Of a DNA stretch of 64,000 nt, positions 2,753 through 24,290 are shown one piece after another (the first letter of the stretch is position 1; the number at the start of each line of letters is the position of its first letter). This DNA is from Flavobacteriales bacterium. Its GTDB lineage: Bacteria > Bacteroidota > Bacteroidia > Flavobacteriales_C > GCA-002722245. The notes below the pieces were generated by a model. The model made no database searches. It saw nothing but the letters and a program-made list of their open reading frames with translations, and was not told the origin of the DNA. The stretch lies in the NCBI GenBank assembly GCA_049430665.1, contig JBMTCG010000001.1:41742-105741 (forward strand). The letters run 5' to 3'. A program made the position numbers and the translations under genes.

Positions 2753-5071
2753 TTAAGGCGCTATTGTCTCAGGAATGGAATCTATTATAATATTCTCCGC
2801 TCCCACCGAATCAATTTCTACCACCACAGTATCCATTTTTGGAGCTTTCATTCTGCAGTTGTGTGGCACATCAATAGGGAAAGGCTCTTTAGGGAAAGGA
2901 GTAGGTTTTAGTTTGCTTTTCTTATCGGCAAATGCTTTTTGCATAAACAAACCAAAAATTGGCAAGGCGGTTTTCATACCTTCACCCGTTGCCGAGTTTT
3001 TAAAGTGTACACAACGGTCTTCCGCACCCACCCAAGTTCCACCAATCAATCCGGTGGTTACACCAACATACCAACCATCGGAATAGTTGTTTGAAGTCCC
3101 GGTTTTACCGCCCATTTGTGCGTTGTTGCCAAACAGAGCATATTGAAATAAAGCTTGCGATGTACCATTGTATTCTTCCACAGTTCCTCTTAGCATATAC
3201 GACATCAACCAAGCGGTTTCCTCTGTTAATGCTCTTTCTTGGGTAGAATTGAATCGTGCTATTTCTTCTCCTTTTTGATTCACGATGTGTGTAACCAAAA
3301 TAGGTTTAATTCTAAATCCGCCGTTGATGAAAGTCGCGTATGCAGTGGTTAATTCCAAGAGGTTAACATCATTGGTTCCTAAACCGATAGAAGGTACTGC
3401 CATTAACGGACTCTCAATTCCGCATTTTTTGGCGGTTTGGGCAACGTTATCCGGACCGCATTGTAGGGTTAATTGCACCGCTATGCTGTTAATAGAATTA
3501 GCCATGGCTCTGCGCAATGTAAGCGTATCGCCCGAGAAATGTCGGCTTGCATTTTTAGGTTCCCAAACGTGATGCACACCATCTTCATCGTATTCGTGAC
3601 GAACATAGCGGTCTATTCTTGTATCACATGGTCCGTTGCCTTGCTCGAAAGCTGTTGCATAAACAAAAGGCTTAAAGGTAGAACCCGGCTGACGTTTAGA
3701 TTGTGTGATATGGTCGAATTTCATGATTTTGTAGTTCCAGCCACCCACCCATGTTTTGATGTGTCCGTTTTTCGGGTCGAGAGTGAAGAAACCACAACGC
3801 AACATTTTTTTGTAATGCGCCAATGAATCGTAAGAACTCATCATCTTTTTGGTGAAGCCAGCATCGTGTGTAAATATTTCGCAAAGGTGAGGTTTGCGTA
3901 AGAAATATTGAATGGTATCTTCATTGTCTTCCCAGCGTTTTTTAAGTGCACGATACACATCTGTTTGTTTGATAGCATTTTCTAAATAGCCTGGTATCTC
4001 TTGTTTTTTGGCATCAACCCAAGGATTTTGACCAGCCCATTGCGCATCAAATTTACCTTGTAATGATTTCATGTGTTCTTGAACTGCTTCTTGCGCGTGC
4101 ATTTGCAAATTCAAATCAATGGTGGTGTAAATTTTTAATCCGTCGCTGTAAATATCATAACCGTTATCGCTACACCATTCTTCTAGTTCGCGCGCAACTG
4201 CGGCACGAACGTAGGGTACTTTGCAATCTTCTGGGTTTTCAACGTGATAATCTAGAGTAATAGGTTTGTCAATGGCTTTAGCGTATTCTTTATCGGTAAT
4301 TACGCCATGTTTTTTCATCAACGATAAAACAACATTTCTTCTTTCCAAAGATTTTTCGGGATGTAAAACCGGATTGTAAGTAGTGGTAGCTTTAAGCATA
4401 CCAATTAAAACAGCCGATTCATCGGCCGTTAAATCTTTTGGTTTTTTATTGAAATAGGTTTTAGCGGCAGTATTGATACCAAAGGCATTGCTGCCAAAAT
4501 CTACTGTGTTCATGTACAACAACAAGATTTCTTCTTTGCTGTAATTTTCTTCCAAACGTTTGGCCACCATCCATTCTTTAACCTTCACATTCACAGTGCT
4601 AATGCCTGGAATGTAGCTCAATAAACCTTTGTTTACTTTACGCATTTTAAAGATATTTTTGGCCAGCTGCATGGTAATGGTACTACTACCTCTTTTATCT
4701 CCTTTGATCATGTACCACAAAATGGCAATATTGGCTTTCCAGTCGATGCCGGTGTGCTCGTAAAAACGCACATCTTCGGTAGCTACCAAACCTTTGTGAA
4801 AAAGCGGATTGATGTCCTTATATCCTACAGAAGAGCGATTTTCACGAAAAAACTTGCCAATAACCTGACCGTCTTCAGCATAAATAACAGATGCAACAGG
4901 CAACTTAGGGTCTTTCAATTCTTTCACCGAAGGCATATTTCCCATTAACCATAGGAAATTGTGTTGAACAACTAAGTATAGAAATATGATGGTGAGAATA
5001 GGGTAGCGATAGCGTTTTTTCTTCCAAAGATAGATTCCGGCACTTTTAACTTTCTCCCAAATTTTCTTCAT
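2753..5071 (-). CDS. mrcA: penicillin-binding protein 1A (class A PBP: GT51 transglycosylase + transpeptidase)
   Basis: Transglycosylase motifs (ATEDVRFYEHTGID; GSSTITMQLAKN). Transpeptidase SxxK (QPGSTFKPFVYATA), plus SxN and KTG motifs (KTGTS). Confidence 0.85.
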   Translation of the reverse strand: MKKIWEKVKSAGIYLWKKKRYRYPILTIIFLYLVVQHNFLWLMGNMPSVKELKDPKLPVASVIYAEDGQVIGKFFRENRSSVGYKDINPLFHKGLVATEDVRFYEHTGIDWKANIAILWYMIKGDKRGSSTITMQLAKNIFKMRKVNKGLLSYIPGISTVNVKVKEWMVAKRLEENYSKEEILLLYMNTVDFGSNAFGINTAAKTYFNKKPKDLTADESAVLIGMLKATTTYNPVLHPEKSLERRNVVLSLMKKHGVITDKEYAKAIDKPITLDYHVENPEDCKVPYVRAAVARELEEWCSDNGYDIYSDGLKIYTTIDLNLQMHAQEAVQEHMKSLQGKFDAQWAGQNPWVDAKKQEIPGYLENAIKQTDVYRALKKRWEDNEDTIQYFLRKPHLCEIFTHDAGFTKKMMSSYDSLAHYKKMLRCGFFTLDPKNGHIKTWVGGWNYKIMKFDHITQSKRQPGSTFKPFVYATAFEQGNGPCDTRIDRYVRHEYDEDGVHHVWEPKNASRHFSGDTLTLRRAMANSINSIAVQLTLQCGPDNVAQTAKKCGIESPLMAVPSIGLGTNDVNLLELTTAYATFINGGFRIKPILVTHIVNQKGEEIARFNSTQERALTEETAWLMSYMLRGTVEEYNGTSQALFQYALFGNNAQMGGKTGTSNNYSDGWYVGVTTGLIGGTWVGAEDRCVHFKNSATGEGMKTALPIFGLFMQKAFADKKSKLKPTPFPKEPFPIDVPHNCRMKAPKMDTVVVEIDSVGAENIIIDSIPETIAP

Positions 5072-6537: not shown

Positions 6538-7368
6538 TTGTTGTTCGATGCTCTCGCCAATCAAGAGGTGTATGATGAAGACAAAATCATCAAGAAGTTT
6601 AAGGGCGCAGCATTCATCAAAAATTTATCGAAAAGCAAGAATCATCTGTACCATGTTATTTTAAAGCGATTAGCACAATACCACGAAGAAAATATCATTG
6701 AGATTAAAATTAAGGGTTTAGTGAATCAGGCTACCATTTTGTATAAGAAAGGATTGTACGAACATGCAGTGATTCACTACGAAAAGGCCTTGCGTTTAGC
6801 TTTAGACGCAGAAGAATTGGAAGTGGCCTTAGAAATTTATACCTGTCTTTTAGACATCTACTTTGTGGGAAGTATGGGCATAAAATTTCCTTATGAAGAG
6901 GAAATGAAAGTGCTTTCAAAAAAACTGAACAATGAACATTTGATAGCGCAACTGCACACCAAAATTGCAGAGAAAATGTTCTCCGACGATTTTAATTCTG
7001 AGCCAGAACAGGTGCAAAGTATTCACGATATTTTGAATGCGCCTTTGCTTCAAAAAATTAACGATAACGATAGTTTTTTTGCACAGTGGGGCAAGATGTG
7101 CATTCATACCCACAGCTACTATCTGCTAAGTCAGCATGAAGATGCCGATGCTATGAAAGCAAAGCAACTGGAGTTTTTGCGTACCCACCCAGCCATGACC
7201 AGTAAAACGCCCATGCGCTATGTAAAACATTTGGCCAACATGATCAATGGCAAATTAAATACTTGCCATTATGATGACATTCCTTCTCTTTTAGAAGAAT
7301 TGAAAAACTTTCAAAGCAACGAAAATTTGTTAGAGCATATTAAACCTTTACAGCTCTCGGTATATTAG
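6538..7368 (+). CDS. helical-repeat (TPR-like) hypothetical protein, N-terminal part; same frame as the next ORF, separated by one TAG
   Basis: ORF with a TTG start. The stop TAG at 7366-7368 lies in the same frame as the ORF starting at 7378. Confidence 0.45.
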   Translation: MLFDALANQEVYDEDKIIKKFKGAAFIKNLSKSKNHLYHVILKRLAQYHEENIIEIKIKGLVNQATILYKKGLYEHAVIHYEKALRLALDAEELEVALEIYTCLLDIYFVGSMGIKFPYEEEMKVLSKKLNNEHLIAQLHTKIAEKMFSDDFNSEPEQVQSIHDILNAPLLQKINDNDSFFAQWGKMCIHTHSYYLLSQHEDADAMKAKQLEFLRTHPAMTSKTPMRYVKHLANMINGKLNTCHYDDIPSLLEELKNFQSNENLLEHIKPLQLSVY

Positions 7369-12727: not shown

Positions 12728-12801
12728 CTCTCCCTCTTGGACTTGAACCAAGGACCCTCTGATTAACAGTCAGATGCTCTAACCAGCTGAGCTAAGGAAG
12801 A
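12728..12801 (-). tRNA. tRNA-Asn (anticodon GTT)
   Basis: Manual fold of the minus strand gives acceptor TCTTCCT/AGGGAGA (one G-U pair), D-arm GCTC-AGCTGGTTA-GAGC, anticodon arm TCTGA-CTGTTAA-TCAGA (GTT), variable loop GGGTC, T-arm CTTGG-TTCAAGT-CCAAG and discriminator G. CCA is not encoded. A 5' UCC start occurs in E. coli tRNA-Asn too. Confidence 0.8.
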
Positions 12802-18478: not shown

Positions 18479-21283
18479 CTAAAGTTTCGAAATAAAATCG
18501 GTAATTGAGCCCTCTTCTTTAATACCTAATTTCTCTTTCAATCTGTATTTTCTTTTCTCCACTCCACTTATAGATATGCTTAATAAATCAGCTATTTCCT
18601 TATTCGATTTATTCATGCGTATGTAAGAGCACATCAACAAAGTAGATTCGTTCATTTTAGGGTCGAGTTGCTTTAATTTTTGAAAGAAATTATCGTTCGT
18701 TTTATCGAAATGCATTTGAAATTTCTCCCAGTTTTCAGCTTCTTTATCTTCCACACCAATAGAGCGAATTAAACTTTTTAGTTCACTGTTACTGGCCTCA
18801 TCTTTCATGTTTTTAGATATGTTGGTGAGCTGTGTTTTCAAAAAAGACAAAAACTGCTTTTTCTGCGTAAAAGTTAGAGCCAAAAAGGCCATCTCATCAT
18901 TCTTACGCTGCAATTCCACTTCTAAAATTTCTGTCTTATGCATTGCTTCTTGATTCTGAATTTCCTTTATTTTCTCTAACTCCATTTTTTCTCTTTGAAC
19001 TTTAAAGCGTTGCTGTACTTTCCTTCTAATGAGCACCACCACCAAAACAGTAAATAAAATGTAAAACAAATAGGCCCAAATGGTGCGGTACCAAGGAGGT
19101 AGAATAGTAAATGCCAACACTCCGGCATCAAACATTTTTCCATTCAACTCGGCTTGAACTTTAAAAGTGTACTCTCCTTCGGGAAGATTGGTGTATTCTT
19201 TAAAAGAATTGGTTGATTCATCTTTCCAAACAAAAGAATGGTTACTAGAGCTTAATTCGGTATGGTAAATAATTTTAGAATTTACACCATAAACAGGCAA
19301 AGCAAAACTAAAGGCCAAACTGTTTTGTTTATAGGTATAAGACAAAGTTTTATTTAAGCCCATCAACAAGGTAGAATCGTTATCAGTATTGAGTAATTTA
19401 ACTTGGCGAATCAAACATTTCGGACCCTTCACCCCCGCACTTTTACTTGGATCAAAAAGTGCAAATCCCAATTGTGTAGCAATTAAATATTCACTGTTGG
19501 AGATTTTACCAACGTATTCGGCACTTCCCACCAATTTATCTTTAACATTGGCCGAAGCAACTGCGCTTATCACATACTTTCCTTGCCTTAATTCTATAAA
19601 TGCTGGACGCTCATTCAAAATAATATACAGCTCGTTTACACTTCCTTCCACCATCCGCAAACGCTTAATGGTATTAGGAAAAAAACTAAACTCTTGATCT
19701 TTCACCAACTCATCTTTTTCGTTGATAATATAAATTCCCCCATCAGAAGAAACTTTTAACTCATGATTCACCTTTACGATATCGTTGAAATAACCAGCAT
19801 AAAAATGATACTTATCAGCGTAGTTTTCCACCTTGGTGGCTTTGGTATACTCACTATTGAGTTCTATTCTGTACAATGCGGCAACACCTTGCACCAACCA
19901 CAATACCCCTCTATCATCAATTTCAAACATACGACACGACTCCCCAAAACCTGCAATGGCATTTCTAAATACCCAATGTCCTTTTCTAAAAGCGTACACA
20001 CTTAAATCGGCGTAAGTTCCACAAATCAATAGTGAATCTATTCCGGGTATTTTTTTGAAAGTCCAACCACCATAATACTTCGCTTTCGATATTTTCTTTG
20101 CCTTTATGCCATTCACCTCATACACATCACTTTCATCAGAACAAATGAGTTTACCATTCATCACCTTCATATCGTTGATGATTAAACCAATACCATTCAC
20201 TTTTTGAAAAACGCGATTCTTATTCTTGTTCCACCCAGCAGCATAATACATACCTTGCGATGTACCCAAATACAAAGTATCGTTCAGTAAAACCGATGAG
20301 TAGCCCATGCCCTCCACGCCTTGAATTTCATTGATATAACTGAAAGGAGAATTCCATTTAATTAAGGCGATTCCATTGTTCAAAGAAGCCCATAAAGAGC
20401 CCTTGCTGTCTTTATAAATCTCGTTTACGAAGTTGTTTTTGAGTCCGATTTTCTTATCTAAAACCTCCAACACATTCCCTTCAAAATCGAAAATTAAAAT
20501 ACCATTTAATTCAGTAGAAACAGCCACCGTGTTGTTGTTTAACAATTCGGCATCTGTTGCAATCATGTTCATCTTTCTCTTCAAGAGCTGGCCATCTTCA
20601 ATGGTAGAAAAACCATCTTTTTGAATGATTAAATAACTATTGTCGGACTTCTTCACCACACCCACCACAGCAGAAGTATCGGCCAATTGCCTTTTCATAA
20701 AAAGAGGCTGATATTTACCTTCCATGATTTTTCCCAATCCTCTGTGGTCGTTGTACACAAAAAGTTCATCATCAACCACGCCCACAAAACCAAACTCGCT
20801 TAACTCACCACGGGGTGTTTCTTCGGGCAAAATAATTTCCACTGTTTTTCCATCATAGACATAAATACAGTTGGAAGAAGAGAAATATACCTTTTGGTGG
20901 TAATAAGCGATGTGAAAAATAATGTTGGGATGATTGTAAGGCTTAGGTGCCAAATCCTTTAAAGAAACGAAAGTGGTTTTTCCCTTAGCATCCTTGTCTA
21001 AGAAACCAAAATCTTCAAAAGCACCTAAATATATTTTTCCTTTTTCATCGCGGGTGAAACAAGTCGGACTATGATCAAACACCGCGATAGAACGCCAGCT
21101 ATTGCCATCAAATTCTAAAACCGAATAAGCATTGGCAAAATGCATCATACCCGATGTATCTTCTATTGCGGCATAATTAATAGAGTGACCTTGGTAATCA
21201 TCGGTTGTATAATGATGAATTTCGGGCAAGGTAGCTTTTACAAAAAATGGAAGCAGTAATAAAAGCAGAGTTATTTTTTTCAT
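18479..21283 (-). CDS. transmembrane one-component regulator: periplasmic two-component-regulator propeller repeats + Y_Y_Y domain, TM helix, C-terminal LuxR-type HTH
   Basis: 934 aa. The long N-terminal beta-propeller-like region has a YYY-like segment, followed by a TM helix (WAYLFYILFTVLVVVLI). The C-terminus LLMCSYIRMNKSNKEIADLLSISISGVEKRKYRLKEKLG is a LuxR/GerE HTH. No kinase or receiver domain is present. Confidence 0.65.
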   Translation of the reverse strand: MKKITLLLLLLPFFVKATLPEIHHYTTDDYQGHSINYAAIEDTSGMMHFANAYSVLEFDGNSWRSIAVFDHSPTCFTRDEKGKIYLGAFEDFGFLDKDAKGKTTFVSLKDLAPKPYNHPNIIFHIAYYHQKVYFSSSNCIYVYDGKTVEIILPEETPRGELSEFGFVGVVDDELFVYNDHRGLGKIMEGKYQPLFMKRQLADTSAVVGVVKKSDNSYLIIQKDGFSTIEDGQLLKRKMNMIATDAELLNNNTVAVSTELNGILIFDFEGNVLEVLDKKIGLKNNFVNEIYKDSKGSLWASLNNGIALIKWNSPFSYINEIQGVEGMGYSSVLLNDTLYLGTSQGMYYAAGWNKNKNRVFQKVNGIGLIINDMKVMNGKLICSDESDVYEVNGIKAKKISKAKYYGGWTFKKIPGIDSLLICGTYADLSVYAFRKGHWVFRNAIAGFGESCRMFEIDDRGVLWLVQGVAALYRIELNSEYTKATKVENYADKYHFYAGYFNDIVKVNHELKVSSDGGIYIINEKDELVKDQEFSFFPNTIKRLRMVEGSVNELYIILNERPAFIELRQGKYVISAVASANVKDKLVGSAEYVGKISNSEYLIATQLGFALFDPSKSAGVKGPKCLIRQVKLLNTDNDSTLLMGLNKTLSYTYKQNSLAFSFALPVYGVNSKIIYHTELSSSNHSFVWKDESTNSFKEYTNLPEGEYTFKVQAELNGKMFDAGVLAFTILPPWYRTIWAYLFYILFTVLVVVLIRRKVQQRFKVQREKMELEKIKEIQNQEAMHKTEILEVELQRKNDEMAFLALTFTQKKQFLSFLKTQLTNISKNMKDEASNSELKSLIRSIGVEDKEAENWEKFQMHFDKTNDNFFQKLKQLDPKMNESTLLMCSYIRMNKSNKEIADLLSISISGVEKRKYRLKEKLGIKEEGSITDFISKL

Positions 21284-21503
21284 AGCGAAAGCTTATAGCC
21301 CTAAAGTAGCAAGTAAATTTAATGAAGTCAAATTGTGTCCAATATTTAGTTAATTGATTTTCAATTATTTAAACAATACTGTCCCGTATTTGTCCGGCTA
21401 CAAAATAAAATCCGTCCAGCGCTTGTCACCCCTATTTACTACCCTACAGTTAACTATATACTTAAATTTGTTACAAGAAAAGTAGATTGAATCCCCCAAT
21501 GAG

Positions 21504-21538
21504 CGGACGGTCTCTTCCCAAGAGCCGTCCGTTTTTTT
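21504..21538 (+). terminator. strong intrinsic terminator (12-bp GC-rich stem, CCC loop, T7)
   Basis: CGGACGGTCTCTT-CCC-AAGAGCCGTCCG followed by TTTTTTT. It sits in a divergent intergenic region, with no annotated plus-strand gene upstream. Confidence 0.6.
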
Positions 21539-21594
21539 AAATTCAATTTCAAACAATGTGTTTTCTCGATTGGTTTCAATATAATAGGTTAAAA

Positions 21595-21624
21595 GAGGCC
21601 GATGCTCATCGGCCTCTTTTTTTT
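21595..21624 (+). terminator. second intrinsic terminator (GAGGCCGATG..CATCGGCCTC, T8)
   Basis: Perfect 10-nt inverted repeat followed by eight T, 55 nt upstream of the AraC-family gene start. Confidence 0.6.
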
Positions 21625-21677
21625 AAATTATATCTATAGAAAATTATATCTTTACTTCTATTGCTCCCCACTTATCA

Positions 21678-22778
21678 ATGGCACTGAATTACAAAAAAAC
21701 TGCATTATCTATTTTCGTTGTTGGCACTTTGCTTACAACTATTGCTTTCTTTTTTAGGGAACAAAAATTAAATCTGTTTCCAAACAACTCATATTTCAAA
21801 GTAGCTTCATATACCGATAGCTCAGAAGGGGGAAATTCGATTTTAGAATTAAAAGTTGATCCGGGAAAGTTCGCTTCAATGAATTACACTTTGGGCAACA
21901 AACTAGAATATCCTTTTTTAGGGATGTATTTTCAGAATAAAGTAGACAGCAATTACCTTGATATTAGTGCTTATGAATCGATGGTGATTAACATAAAAGC
22001 CGATAAGGCCTCTATGATTCCTATAGACATTAGTGTGTTTTGTGATGGTATTTCTCAATACGGAAAACCCAACTCGTATGTGAGTCATATTTACGATTTA
22101 AAAGACGAAAAAATAAATGGTGAATATCGAATTTCTCTTGATAAATTCACGGTTCCCGAATGGTGGTATACCGAAAATGCCATAGAAAATAGCGGAAAAT
22201 TGAAATGCAATTTCGAAAAAATGCAATCGATTAATATTGAACAAGGAGTAAATGCCAAAGCAGGGGTGAGCGATAATATTGCCGTGTATGACTTGTATTT
22301 AAAAAAGGAAAATATCTATTACCTCTACATCTTTTTATTATCGATGATTTTAGGCGTAACAGCACTAGTCATTGATTATGTAAAACGCAAAAAAACGGTG
22401 TTTGTACCTTACCAAACCACACCCGAAATTCACAATGGAAATGATGCCTTAGAAAACAAGGTTTTTGATTATATCGCCAACAATTATTCTAATCCCGATT
22501 TATCTCTTTCTAGTATCAATGCCGATACTGGCATTGCCGAAAATAAAATATCAAGCATCATAAAAACCAAGTGCAATCAGTCGTTCAAGCAGTACATCAA
22601 CAACATTAGAATGACCGAAGCCAAACGCTTGTTGAAAGAAAGTGATGCCACCATTTCTGAAATTGCATACTCGGTAGGTTACAACAATGTAACGCACTTT
22701 AACCGTGTGTTTAAAACCGAAACGGGTATTGCGCCAGGCGACTTCAGAAAAAATGCACAAAGTGCAGAAACAGCATAA
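21678..22778 (+). CDS. membrane-anchored AraC-family transcriptional regulator
   Basis: N-terminal TM helix and a second TM segment (YLYIFLLSMILGVTALVI). The C-terminal AraC HTH pair reads …SFKQYINNIRMTEAKRLL…ISEIAYSVGYNNVTHFNRVFKTETGIAPGDFRK. Confidence 0.75.
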   Translation: MALNYKKTALSIFVVGTLLTTIAFFFREQKLNLFPNNSYFKVASYTDSSEGGNSILELKVDPGKFASMNYTLGNKLEYPFLGMYFQNKVDSNYLDISAYESMVINIKADKASMIPIDISVFCDGISQYGKPNSYVSHIYDLKDEKINGEYRISLDKFTVPEWWYTENAIENSGKLKCNFEKMQSINIEQGVNAKAGVSDNIAVYDLYLKKENIYYLYIFLLSMILGVTALVIDYVKRKKTVFVPYQTTPEIHNGNDALENKVFDYIANNYSNPDLSLSSINADTGIAENKISSIIKTKCNQSFKQYINNIRMTEAKRLLKESDATISEIAYSVGYNNVTHFNRVFKTETGIAPGDFRKNAQSAETA

Positions 22779-22823
22779 AAAAGCCTCATCCGTCTTTCAA
22801 CGAATGAGGCCCAGGTAAGAGAA

Positions 22824-24290
22824 CTACTCTACATACCACTTTACCACCCTATTCTCCCCTTCCTTGTTCAATTTCAAAAGATATAAGCCTGTTGGCAAAA
22901 ATTGTTTGCTTTCAGCTAATGTGCCGAAATATTCGTGTAGTTTTTTGCCTTGAATATCGTAAACTGAAATATTGTAATTCTGAGTTAAGGAAAACGCTGT
23001 GCTTTCTTCCTTCACCGTGGTAGTCCAATCGGCAAAACCACCAAATGTAACAAGTATCTTAGAAGGAGAAGAACGTTGCAGAGTCGACGATTGATCGAAC
23101 ACATCATCATAAGCAAAAGCATAAGTTTTGTTGTTGTAGCTGATGCCATTTTCATGAAAAAACTTAGCGTAATAATTACATGGCGCACTTAGATAATACT
23201 GCGATGGATCGGAAAAATTCTGAGTACCAACATTGGGCGTAGTAGTATTAATCACATGGCGCGAAATGGCCGCACATATTTGGGCTTGCATCATTAAATC
23301 GACAGGAGCATCGCCATTGATTTGATTCAACACTCCTTTCCCTTCAAATACTTCTTGCGTTGTTGGTCGGCGACTTATAATAGCCGTTCTTCCGTTAAAT
23401 CCGCCAGATTGGGCCACCATCACCAATTGTACATTTTGCACTCTTCCTTTCCAAACACCAGCATCACCTGCGGAAAAAATCAAATCTTCGTTGGCATACT
23501 TCGTCCAAACGGCGTCGATATAAGGTTTCATGTAATCTACATATGGCCCTATATTCGGCATAGTACCAATGGTTCCATCTGCAAAGGCTTCGGTTTTGGT
23601 TGGGAAAAGAATTACACCAATATTGGGATTATAACAGCCTTGAAATTCAATAGGTACAGAAGCCAGGAAGTCGGCACCAATATCGGTATGCACTTTCAAT
23701 TCTCCTGTTTTTTGATGCGAATTACCACCACCCCACAACTCTAATCCCATTGGATAATTGTATGAGTCAACACGTGTGGTATTTCCCCAGAAACCGTATT
23801 GATTATAAGTCATTTCAATAATTTCGTAAGCGATGCCTTTGTTAGGATCGGTGGGGTCGGTATGGTTGGGAGAAGCATAACCCGACGGCGCACCAGTAGC
23901 TCCAAAGAAATACATATACAAGGGACTTCCAATAGAAATGAACATTCTGCAACCTTGAATACCTGCTAAACTTACTGTTTTATTAGGGATATCGCTTAGT
24001 TTGGTGAAGCAGGCAGCGTACATTCCGTTGTTGCCCGGACCTTTATTACCGCCATACACCGGACCAGCAACAGTGTTGTAGCTTGGACTCATGGGCATTT
24101 GTTGGCCATTGGTCATATCTACCCATACGTGTGCACCCGGCGGACCAGTTAAATCTTCACCCACAATGGCCACATACAATTGGTTATCGGCATAAGGTGA
24201 ATTGTTCTTAATTTCAAAAGGAATAGTTTGGGCAAACAAGGCGTTCGCCCAAACTATAGGGAGGAGAAAAGTAGCTCTTAAAAAATTCAT
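22824..24290 (-). CDS. secreted protein with T9SS C-terminal sorting domain (enzyme-like N-terminal domain of unknown family; possibly glycoside-hydrolase-like)
   Basis: Signal peptide. The C-terminal roughly 90 aa (…ISVYDIQGKKLHEY…GLYLLKLNKEGENRVVKWYVE) fit the type A T9SS sorting domain. I cannot assign the catalytic domain. Confidence 0.55.
   Translation of the reverse strand: MNFLRATFLLPIVWANALFAQTIPFEIKNNSPYADNQLYVAIVGEDLTGPPGAHVWVDMTNGQQMPMSPSYNTVAGPVYGGNKGPGNNGMYAACFTKLSDIPNKTVSLAGIQGCRMFISIGSPLYMYFFGATGAPSGYASPNHTDPTDPNKGIAYEIIEMTYNQYGFWGNTTRVDSYNYPMGLELWGGGNSHQKTGELKVHTDIGADFLASVPIEFQGCYNPNIGVILFPTKTEAFADGTIGTMPNIGPYVDYMKPYIDAVWTKYANEDLIFSAGDAGVWKGRVQNVQLVMVAQSGGFNGRTAIISRRPTTQEVFEGKGVLNQINGDAPVDLMMQAQICAAISRHVINTTTPNVGTQNFSDPSQYYLSAPCNYYAKFFHENGISYNNKTYAFAYDDVFDQSSTLQRSSPSKILVTFGGFADWTTTVKEESTAFSLTQNYNISVYDIQGKKLHEYFGTLAESKQFLPTGLYLLKLNKEGENRVVKWYVE

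Follow-up and report, generated by a model that had tools for sequence, protein, structure and literature searches.

A gap of 394 bp separates two regulator genes that are transcribed away from each other in the window, the 64,000-nucleotide stretch of a Flavobacteriales genome analyzed here (contig JBMTCG010000001.1). The minus-strand gene encodes a Reg_prop/Y_Y_Y sensor with a LuxR-type DNA-binding domain and the plus-strand gene a membrane-bound AraC-type regulator; domain matches agreed with the way in which an earlier, sequence-only reading had described both. That reading had also proposed, as one of two alternatives, that the gap holds an unannotated small RNA (sRNA) of about 100 to 250 nt. 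The sRNA part of the proposal gained support from a promoter box, an invariant block, a covarying stem, and the lack of a conserved open reading frame (ORF), but the size did not: the candidate, which we call RNA1, is predicted to be ∼64 nt long and to end at the first of two terminators. We regard it as reasonably likely that RNA1 is an independent small-RNA gene, neither translated nor part of the AraC mRNA. Features of the locus are listed in Table 1, in which signed positions are counted from the predicted RNA1 start (+1).

The two plus-strand terminators named in the sequence-only reading were both recovered, with tails of seven and eight T residues, and each has the GC-rich stem-loop followed by a U-tract that characterizes intrinsic (Rho-independent) terminators. 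Hairpin 1 pairs C21504-G21510 with C21525-G21531 and C21512-T21516 with A21520-G21524, with a bulged T21511 and the loop CCC. Hairpin 2 pairs A21591-T21603 with A21608-T21620, has a GC-rich core (21595 to 21616) and the loop GCTC, and is followed by a T-run that ends 54 nt upstream of the AraC ATG (21678). The terminator scan covered both strands of the window (128 kb of strand). Only 10 hairpins followed by T5 had energies of −13 kcal/mol or below, and both terminators were within the top four of these, so that two such strong elements on one strand within 394 bp are far more than chance would give. On the minus strand, hairpin 1 lacks a T-tail and hairpin 2 has only T4, so both hairpins are read mainly on the plus strand. 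A repeat or mobile element was rejected as an explanation, given that neither hairpin sequence has a second copy in the window and that the 22-nt block at the 5′ end of RNA1 had no match in an exact scan of viral contigs.

For comparison, we assembled 14 related loci, whose AraC proteins are 46 to 87% identical to that of the window. Four syntenic loci (L001 to L004) came from an AraC protein search of species-representative genomes, an exact 20-mer scan of metagenomes gave at least four more syntenic copies and one chance match in GC-rich DNA, and six further loci (L018-L023, L027) were reached through protein homologues at 46 to 55% identity. All carriers of the element are uncultured Flavobacteriales-type metagenome-assembled genomes (MAGs) or metagenome contigs. 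The order of Reg_prop/Y_Y_Y gene on the minus strand, gap of ∼390 to 460 nt, and AraC gene on the plus strand is kept wherever the contig extends upstream, except at L002; the genes outside the regulator pair vary between loci. Every copy of the element found in the metagenome 20-mer scan, or in a covariance-model scan of 262 kb, sits directly 5′ of the AraC gene. AraC homologues at 44% identity or below had other neighbors, with neither a LuxR-type neighbor nor the element.

RNA1 opens with an invariant block of 21 to 22 nt (AAGAAAAGTAGATTGAATCCC) that starts exactly at the predicted +1 (21475). Positions 1 to 21 are identical in all loci bar one G/A change; the 4 bases between the −7 box and 21475 vary among loci. 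A short variable linker follows, and then hairpin 1. Covariation analysis of the orthologous intergenic regions bore out this hairpin: 94.7% of cells were paired, and 6 of its 12 pairs had changed on both sides, giving compensatory stems such as CGGACGG/CCGTCCG, CAGATGG/CCATCTG, CAGGCGG/CCGCTTG, and TAGACGG/CCGTCTG. Of 500 shuffles, none equaled the observed paired fraction or covariation score and 2 had as many as six such pairs; slid controls reached 24 to 57% pairing. The loop (CCC or CCCCAA) is conserved although the stem covaries. RNAalifold independently returned the same hairpin with the first 28 nt of RNA1 unpaired, and the fold had a z-score of −4.8. RNA1 thus carries a conserved single-stranded stretch of the kind that serves as a seed.

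The element is also single copy. A covariance model of RNA1 (R1) found one copy per syntenic locus, at 69 to 92 bits, with no further copy in the window and none in unrelated loci; likewise, the RNA1 18-mer had no second site in the window with up to 3 mismatches. Ten loci stacked ungapped on one anchor stayed in register from about −140 to +22. Hairpin 2 is likewise kept in the related loci. Because the MAFFT alignment was out of register for pair counting at terminator 2, we folded each locus separately and found a hairpin of −16 to −21 kcal/mol with a T-run in 14 of 14 loci, built from at least eight different, unrelated stem sequences at the same position. The structure of both terminators is therefore maintained independently of sequence. 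Separately, a marginal 4-bp helix (AUUG/CAAU) lies at 21486 to 21500, with a stem too weak to assess; it could expose AAUCCCC of the seed as a loop, so that RNA1 would have two C-rich loops, the other being the terminator loop (CCC/CCCCAA).

We found no sign that this region is translated. Consistent with the claim of the sequence-only reading that no plus-strand protein gene lies upstream of the terminators, the only upstream plus-strand ORF is a 43-amino-acid (aa) frame with a TTG start (21354 to 21485) in which the closest relatives have stop codons and which is interrupted in L014, L003, L004, L021, L027, and L020. Across the hairpin runs a 13-codon frame with an ATG start; L003 has a frame shift in it, and L004 lacks the ATG. 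Three candidate small proteins (the 43-aa, a 27-aa, and the 13-codon ORFs) were rejected; no frame is open in all loci. Scanning of the interval against Rfam at the gathering score gave no family, either in the window or in five orthologous loci; the only match at that score in the window was a tRNA-Asn (12728 to 12801), and sub-threshold matches in E-value scans were driven by the terminator. Rfam 15 does not contain the element, and no paper came up when the literature was searched for the exact text of its core sequence. As a candidate sRNA family, RNA1 is new, has a well-known architecture, and is so far confined to a few uncultured lineages.

In Flavobacterium psychrophilum, the −7 box of sigma-A promoters (TAnnTTTG) has been mapped at −12 to −5 (PMC9723704). 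The box of the predicted RNA1 promoter, P1, together with this mapped position, therefore places +1 at 21475. The box is perfect in 13 of 14 loci with differing bases at "nn" (TAAATTTG, TAATTTTG, TATCTTTG), and L002 has a 5/6 match (TCAATTTG). By these sequence features, RNA1 is predicted to have its own promoter and its own terminator and to form an independent transcription unit.

Upstream of P1, (T/C)GTC(C/A) repeats stand at exactly −95, −84, −62, and −51 in all 12 loci in which the upstream region is complete; two distal repeat copies are degenerate, but their positions are nonetheless identical. The repeats form two 18-bp composite sites (7-4-7), 33 bp apart and ending at −45. A fifth repeat, a putative member of the set, has its TGTC kept in those columns of the ungapped 10-locus stack, and with it included, every spacing in the set is a multiple of 11 bp. 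Adjoining this fifth repeat is a possible −7-like box (the reverse complement of 21329 to 21336, ACAATTTG) of the divergent LuxR-type gene, the ATG of which is fixed at −192 to −194 from the RNA1 start. The composite motif did not occur again in the window, where we saw no other operator copies that might form a regulon. Phased direct repeats ending at −45 in front of a weak −33 region are the usual signature of an activator-dependent promoter, and the repeats thus look like an activator operator. P1, the phased operator, and the fixed geometry to the LuxR-type gene had all been missed by the sequence-only reading. A palindrome (TTGATTTTCAA, 21354 to 21364) also lies between the LuxR-type start and the repeats, is present as TGAnnnTCA in most loci, and may be a site for a dimeric helix-turn-helix (HTH) protein of the LuxR type.

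Table 1. Features of the regulator gene pair and of the gap between them (window coordinates)
Feature	Position	Strand	Description
Divergent regulator gene	18479-21283	−	Reg_prop/Y_Y_Y sensor, periplasmic, with transmembrane (TM) segment and LuxR/sigma-r4-type HTH
Fifth TGTC(C/T) repeat	21336-21340	+	At −139, 44 bp (4 × 11) upstream of the −95 repeat
Distal operator pair	21380-21397	+	TGTCCCG-TATT-TGTCCGG; repeats at −95 and −84
Proximal operator pair	21413-21430	+	CGTCCAG-CGCT-TGTCACC; repeats at −62 and −51
Possible −33-like element	21435-21437	+	Conserved TTT, −40 to −38
P1 −7 box	21463-21470	+	TAAATTTG; consensus TAnnTTTG, at −12 to −5
RNA1, candidate sRNA	21475-21538	+	∼64 nt; unpaired 5′ block, hairpin 1, U-tail 21532-21538
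RNA1 invariant unpaired 5′ block	21475-21497	+	AAGAAAAGTAGATTGAATCCCCC
Terminator hairpin 1	21504-21531; T7 21532-21538	+	−21.1 kcal/mol
Conserved block before terminator 2	21558-21590	+	GTGTTTTCTCGATTGGTTTCAATATAATAGGTTA; two TAGGTTT-like motifs
TAGGTTT-like motif 1	21571-21578	+	TTGGTTTC; degenerate −7 box in window clade
TAGGTTT-like motif 2	21585-21592	+	TAGGTTAA; directly before hairpin 2
Terminator 2	21591-21624	+	13-bp stem, T8 21617-21624, −19.4 kcal/mol
Probable AraC promoter, −7-like box	21647-21654	+	TATCTTTA; predicted start ∼21659, 5′ untranslated region ∼19 nt
Membrane AraC/HTH_18 regulator gene	21678-22778	+	TM, CBM11/CIA30-like beta-sandwich, second TM, AraC HTH

We propose that transcription would begin at ∼21475 from P1, a Bacteroidota sigma-A promoter with a poor −33 region, which would be turned on when an activator occupies the direct repeats, two pairs with 11-bp phasing (−95/−84 and −62/−51). 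The best candidates for this activator would be the two flanking membrane-anchored, glycan-sensor-type regulators. Transcription would end at terminator 1 to give the ∼64-nt RNA1, the first ∼22 nt of which, single stranded and almost invariant, would act as a seed for pairing with mRNAs elsewhere in the genome. Terminator 2 would end read-through RNA1 or a second, very short transcript and would shield the AraC promoter just downstream.

The flanking proteins suggest what the signal might be. The AlphaFold model of the AraC-type protein (predicted local distance difference test score [pLDDT], 87) has a TM helix, a beta-sandwich, a second TM helix, and the AraC HTH. The extracytoplasmic sandwich (residues 28 to 211, between the two TM helices) resembles CIA30, CBM11, and CBM30 (Foldseek E, 3 × 10−8 to 1 × 10−7). 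In the divergent protein, the C-terminal HTH is a weak match of the GerE/sigma-70 region 4 type. Its Reg_prop/Y_Y_Y sensor is typical of oligosaccharide-sensing hybrid two-component systems (HTCS). Because the pair combines a CBM-like sandwich with such a sensor, it is a reasonable inference that the signal is a glycan. A bolder proposal, which we consider possible but offer tentatively, is that RNA1 is the dedicated output of this glycan-sensing one-component pair (Reg_prop/Y_Y_Y-LuxR type plus CBM11-like-AraC type), such that a periplasmic carbohydrate signal would act through the 11-bp-phased TGTCC operator to make an sRNA that re-programs surface or glycan-utilization mRNAs.

One locus bears on which of the two proteins might bind the repeats. 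At L002 (MAG TH-11nov19-287), positions 2860 to 2930 correspond to window positions 18543 to 21409, a clean deletion of ∼2.87 kb that takes almost all of the Reg_prop/Y_Y_Y-LuxR-type gene together with the distal operator pair but leaves in place the proximal pair, RNA1, terminator 2, and AraC. The deletion could be a real variant or an assembly artifact. Because the proximal pair, RNA1, and AraC are kept there in the absence of the LuxR-type gene, the AraC-type protein is slightly favored over the LuxR-type protein as the candidate binder of the direct-repeat operator.

Several observations on the neighborhood of the pair stand apart from these results. A GH64 beta-1,3-glucanase gene (22824 to 24290, minus strand) adjoins the AraC gene as a window-specific insertion; in L001, L002, and L014, the sequence equivalent to window position ∼22751 is joined straight to that at ∼24543. 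The presence of a GH64 gene beside a regulator with a CBM11-like sensor, a beta-glucan-binding fold, is suggestive. A strong minus-strand terminator (22782 to 22811; −20 kcal/mol, T5) stands behind the GH64 gene, in the 45 bp that separate it from the convergent AraC gene, and exemplifies the other strong elements checked, all of which were at gene ends. Locus L004 contains a long near-perfect hairpin (7129 to 7209) that plant and animal microRNA precursor models match on both strands (E ∼1 × 10−3); it is probably a palindromic repeat. The label "Chryseobacterium gleum" on the MAGs of L001 and L002 looks unreliable, since the window protein is recorded in an identical context as "Flavobacteriales bacterium."

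Among the other explanations, the one that survives best concerns the second terminator, which may end either a separate tiny RNA, of ∼42 nt in the window and ∼66 nt in the distant clade, or read-through RNA1. In the former case, the locus would hold two tandem sRNA genes, with terminator 2 closing an independent RNA2 that starts either at ∼21583 from a TAGGTTTG-type box (TTGGTTTC), giving 42 nt, or at a FopS-like start at ∼21555 to 21558, giving ∼70 nt. We consider this possible but less likely than not. The equivalent of motif 1 is a perfect −7 box (TAGGTTTG, of the form TAnnTTTG) in 4 of 5 loci of the distant clade, where its spacing to ATAATAGG or ATTATAGG is conserved, and TAGGTT(A/T) directly 5′ of hairpin 2 is nearly invariant. 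In the window clade, however, the box is degenerate, often without the TA and the final G, and a 42-nt RNA with an 8-nt tail would be very small. The conserved block in front of terminator 2 is ambiguous in the same way: it could comprise a weak promoter P2 and the 5′ tail of a 42-nt RNA2, or it could be part of read-through RNA1. Window positions 21558 to 21626 gave a weak full-length match to Rfam FopS (RF04319), including AGGUUAA (26.8 bits; E, 0.01 to 0.065), but this is half of the gathering score of 56, FopS was not recovered in targeted scans of L003 and L020 or in six loci scanned together, and many unrelated sRNA models score similarly on the terminator alone. Because the orthologous regions lack a FopS match, we rejected FopS membership and did not file the second unit under that family. 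The TAGGTTT-like direct repeat itself is spaced by 14 nt in the window clade and by ∼34 nt in the distant clade (3298 to 3305 and 3332 to 3339 in L018); one copy might be a promoter box and the other an RNA motif, or the two might form a repeat bound by a protein.

Several points weigh against the reading of RNA1 as an independent sRNA that acts in trans. No target was found for it in a search limited to 64 kb of the genome, in which the best seed sites lay inside ORFs or antisense, with no credible site at translation starts. A cis target in the AraC ORF (21821 to 21850) was rejected, being absent from all orthologous AraC genes, as was the leader of the LuxR-type gene, where complementarity is not conserved. 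The −33 element of P1 is weak (TTTA/TTTC, separated from the −7 box by 24 nt). The invariant block from +1 to +22 could in principle be a DNA site instead of an RNA seed. The remaining points concern the link to AraC: its −7-like boxes lack the final G (5/6), the distant-clade box immediately follows terminator 2, such that AraC may be transcribed by read-through, and the RNA1 start and the AraC ATG are separated by a strangely constant 203 to 209 nt in 12 of 14 loci, which hints at some coupling. As side observations, the site at 21821 to 21850 on the plus strand (GGGGGAAATTCGATTTTAG) is complementary to the RNA1 seed at ∼−21 kcal/mol, among the top five in the window, and the stretch from terminator 1 to terminator 2 has unrelated sequences in the different clades despite the constant distance.

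The points that concern AraC are also those that favor a leader, the other alternative raised in the sequence-only reading, which had suggested a riboswitch- or attenuator-type control of the regulator gene. P1 would then be the real AraC promoter, RNA1 and the spacer would form a ∼200-nt 5′ untranslated region (UTR), and terminators 1 and 2 would act as attenuators under certain conditions, with a protein, an RNA, or a metabolite able to overcome them. The plus-strand order of promoter, two terminators, and AraC fits this arrangement, as do the near-constant distance and the imperfect AraC-proximal boxes, which overlap the T-tract of terminator 2 in the distant clade. Nevertheless, we consider a leader unlikely. 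A 5/6 −7-like box (TATCTTTA or TATTTTAG) lies ∼10 to 23 nt upstream of the AraC ATG in every locus, and, since the median flavobacterial 5′ UTR is 24 nt (PMC9723704), the AraC 5′ UTR implied by this box is within the normal range. In L021, ∼60 nt of extra sequence separates terminator 2 from the AraC ATG and lies upstream of the box. No riboswitch or leader family reached the Rfam threshold in the window or the five orthologous loci, the 28 unpaired nucleotides before hairpin 1 leave no aptamer in the consensus fold, and no leader peptide is conserved. Antiterminator pairing was neither conserved nor significant: pairing of the seed (GAUUGAAUCC) with an AUUCAA segment after terminator 1, which recurred in minimum-free-energy folds, was no better than in dinucleotide shuffles (seed-to-spacer P = 0.04 to 0.88 across 13 loci), and we rejected it. 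In addition, two very stable tandem terminators (−21 and −19 kcal/mol) fit tunable attenuation poorly. The leader or riboswitch reading is not supported, because AraC keeps its own −7-like box and no antiterminator was found; the evidence suggests instead that the AraC gene is insulated from the sRNA unit.

Least probable, in our judgment, is that there is no functional RNA, with the conserved blocks being DNA elements (operators and promoter parts of both regulators) and the hairpins being insulator terminators that stop stray or divergent-promoter transcription into AraC: many DNA motifs are indeed conserved (five phased TGTC repeats, the TGAnnnTCA palindrome, the duplicated TAGGTTT), and the stem of terminator 2 is free to vary in sequence, as in a pure terminator or insulator, but this account leaves unexplained the presence of a conserved, perfectly matching sigma-A −7 box that points at the terminators, an invariance that starts exactly at the predicted +1 and runs for 21 to 22 nt, and a conserved hairpin 1 loop on a covarying stem.

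Taken as an independent sRNA unit, the locus is a compact module of promoter, phased operator, 22-nt seed, and two candidate sensor-regulators, one of them with a CBM-like periplasmic domain. Confirmation of this module would tie an sRNA of freshwater and groundwater flavobacteria to the sensing of extracellular glycans. To our knowledge, a sensor-to-sRNA module of this kind has not been described in Bacteroidota, in which post-transcriptional control is known to us almost only from gut Bacteroides; for environmental Flavobacteriales, we know of very few characterized sRNAs and of none tied to a defined regulator. For annotation, the 394-bp "divergent promoter region" would hold at least one extra transcription unit.

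The arrangement recalls several known systems. In the enterobacterial pairs oxyR-oxyS, gcvA-gcvB, and sgrR-sgrS, an sRNA gene is divergent from a transcription factor gene, and the two share a compact control region with sites for the factor. The fixed distance of 192 to 194 bp between the LuxR-type ATG and the RNA1 +1, with phased repeats between them, is similar. The factors of those pairs, however, are soluble LysR- and SgrR-type proteins, whereas both regulators here are one-component sensors anchored in the membrane and are candidate binders of the repeats. Further differences are a second regulator gene on the downstream side and the persistence of RNA1 at L002 despite deletion of the divergent gene. 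With attenuation leaders and riboswitches, the locus has in common a promoter followed by intrinsic terminators upstream of a gene on the same strand, but it differs from them in having no aptamer, alternative pairing, or leader peptide and in the putative separate promoter box of AraC.

The operator resembles those of Bacteroides AraC-type HTCS and SusR-like membrane regulators, for which the predicted motifs are spaced direct repeats upstream of activated promoters (PMC3878776). The published motifs comprise 12- to 16-bp sites with 5- to 9-bp spacers in front of polysaccharide utilization locus (PUL) operons (PMC3878776). The two 18-bp, 7-4-7 direct-repeat sites upstream of P1 follow this pattern; the apparent target here, however, is an sRNA promoter rather than a PUL operon, and, unlike HTCS, the flanking regulators have no kinase and receiver modules.

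Among sRNAs of the phylum, the "indep" sRNAs of F. psychrophilum, such as Rfp18, are independent, terminator-ended, conserved non-coding RNAs with sigma-A promoters (PMC9723704). Going by its description only, Rfp18 differs from RNA1 in having multiple stem-loops and in pairing through the third. FopS and GibS of Bacteroides thetaiotaomicron are RNAs of 65 to 70 nt that have a canonical sigma-A (TAnnTTTG) promoter, are linked to the control of glycan utilization, and pair with the translation-initiation regions of SusC-like and glycoside-hydrolase mRNAs (PMC11697453). RNA1 has no sequence relationship to either and matches no Rfam family, FopS included. FopS has 12 to 15 paralogues per genome, whereas RNA1 occurs once per locus, with no second copy in the 64 kb; nor have FopS genes been described as paired with a dedicated regulator or operator. 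Nevertheless, RNA1 has the same architecture as FopS and GibS, a free 5′ seed followed by a terminator hairpin only.

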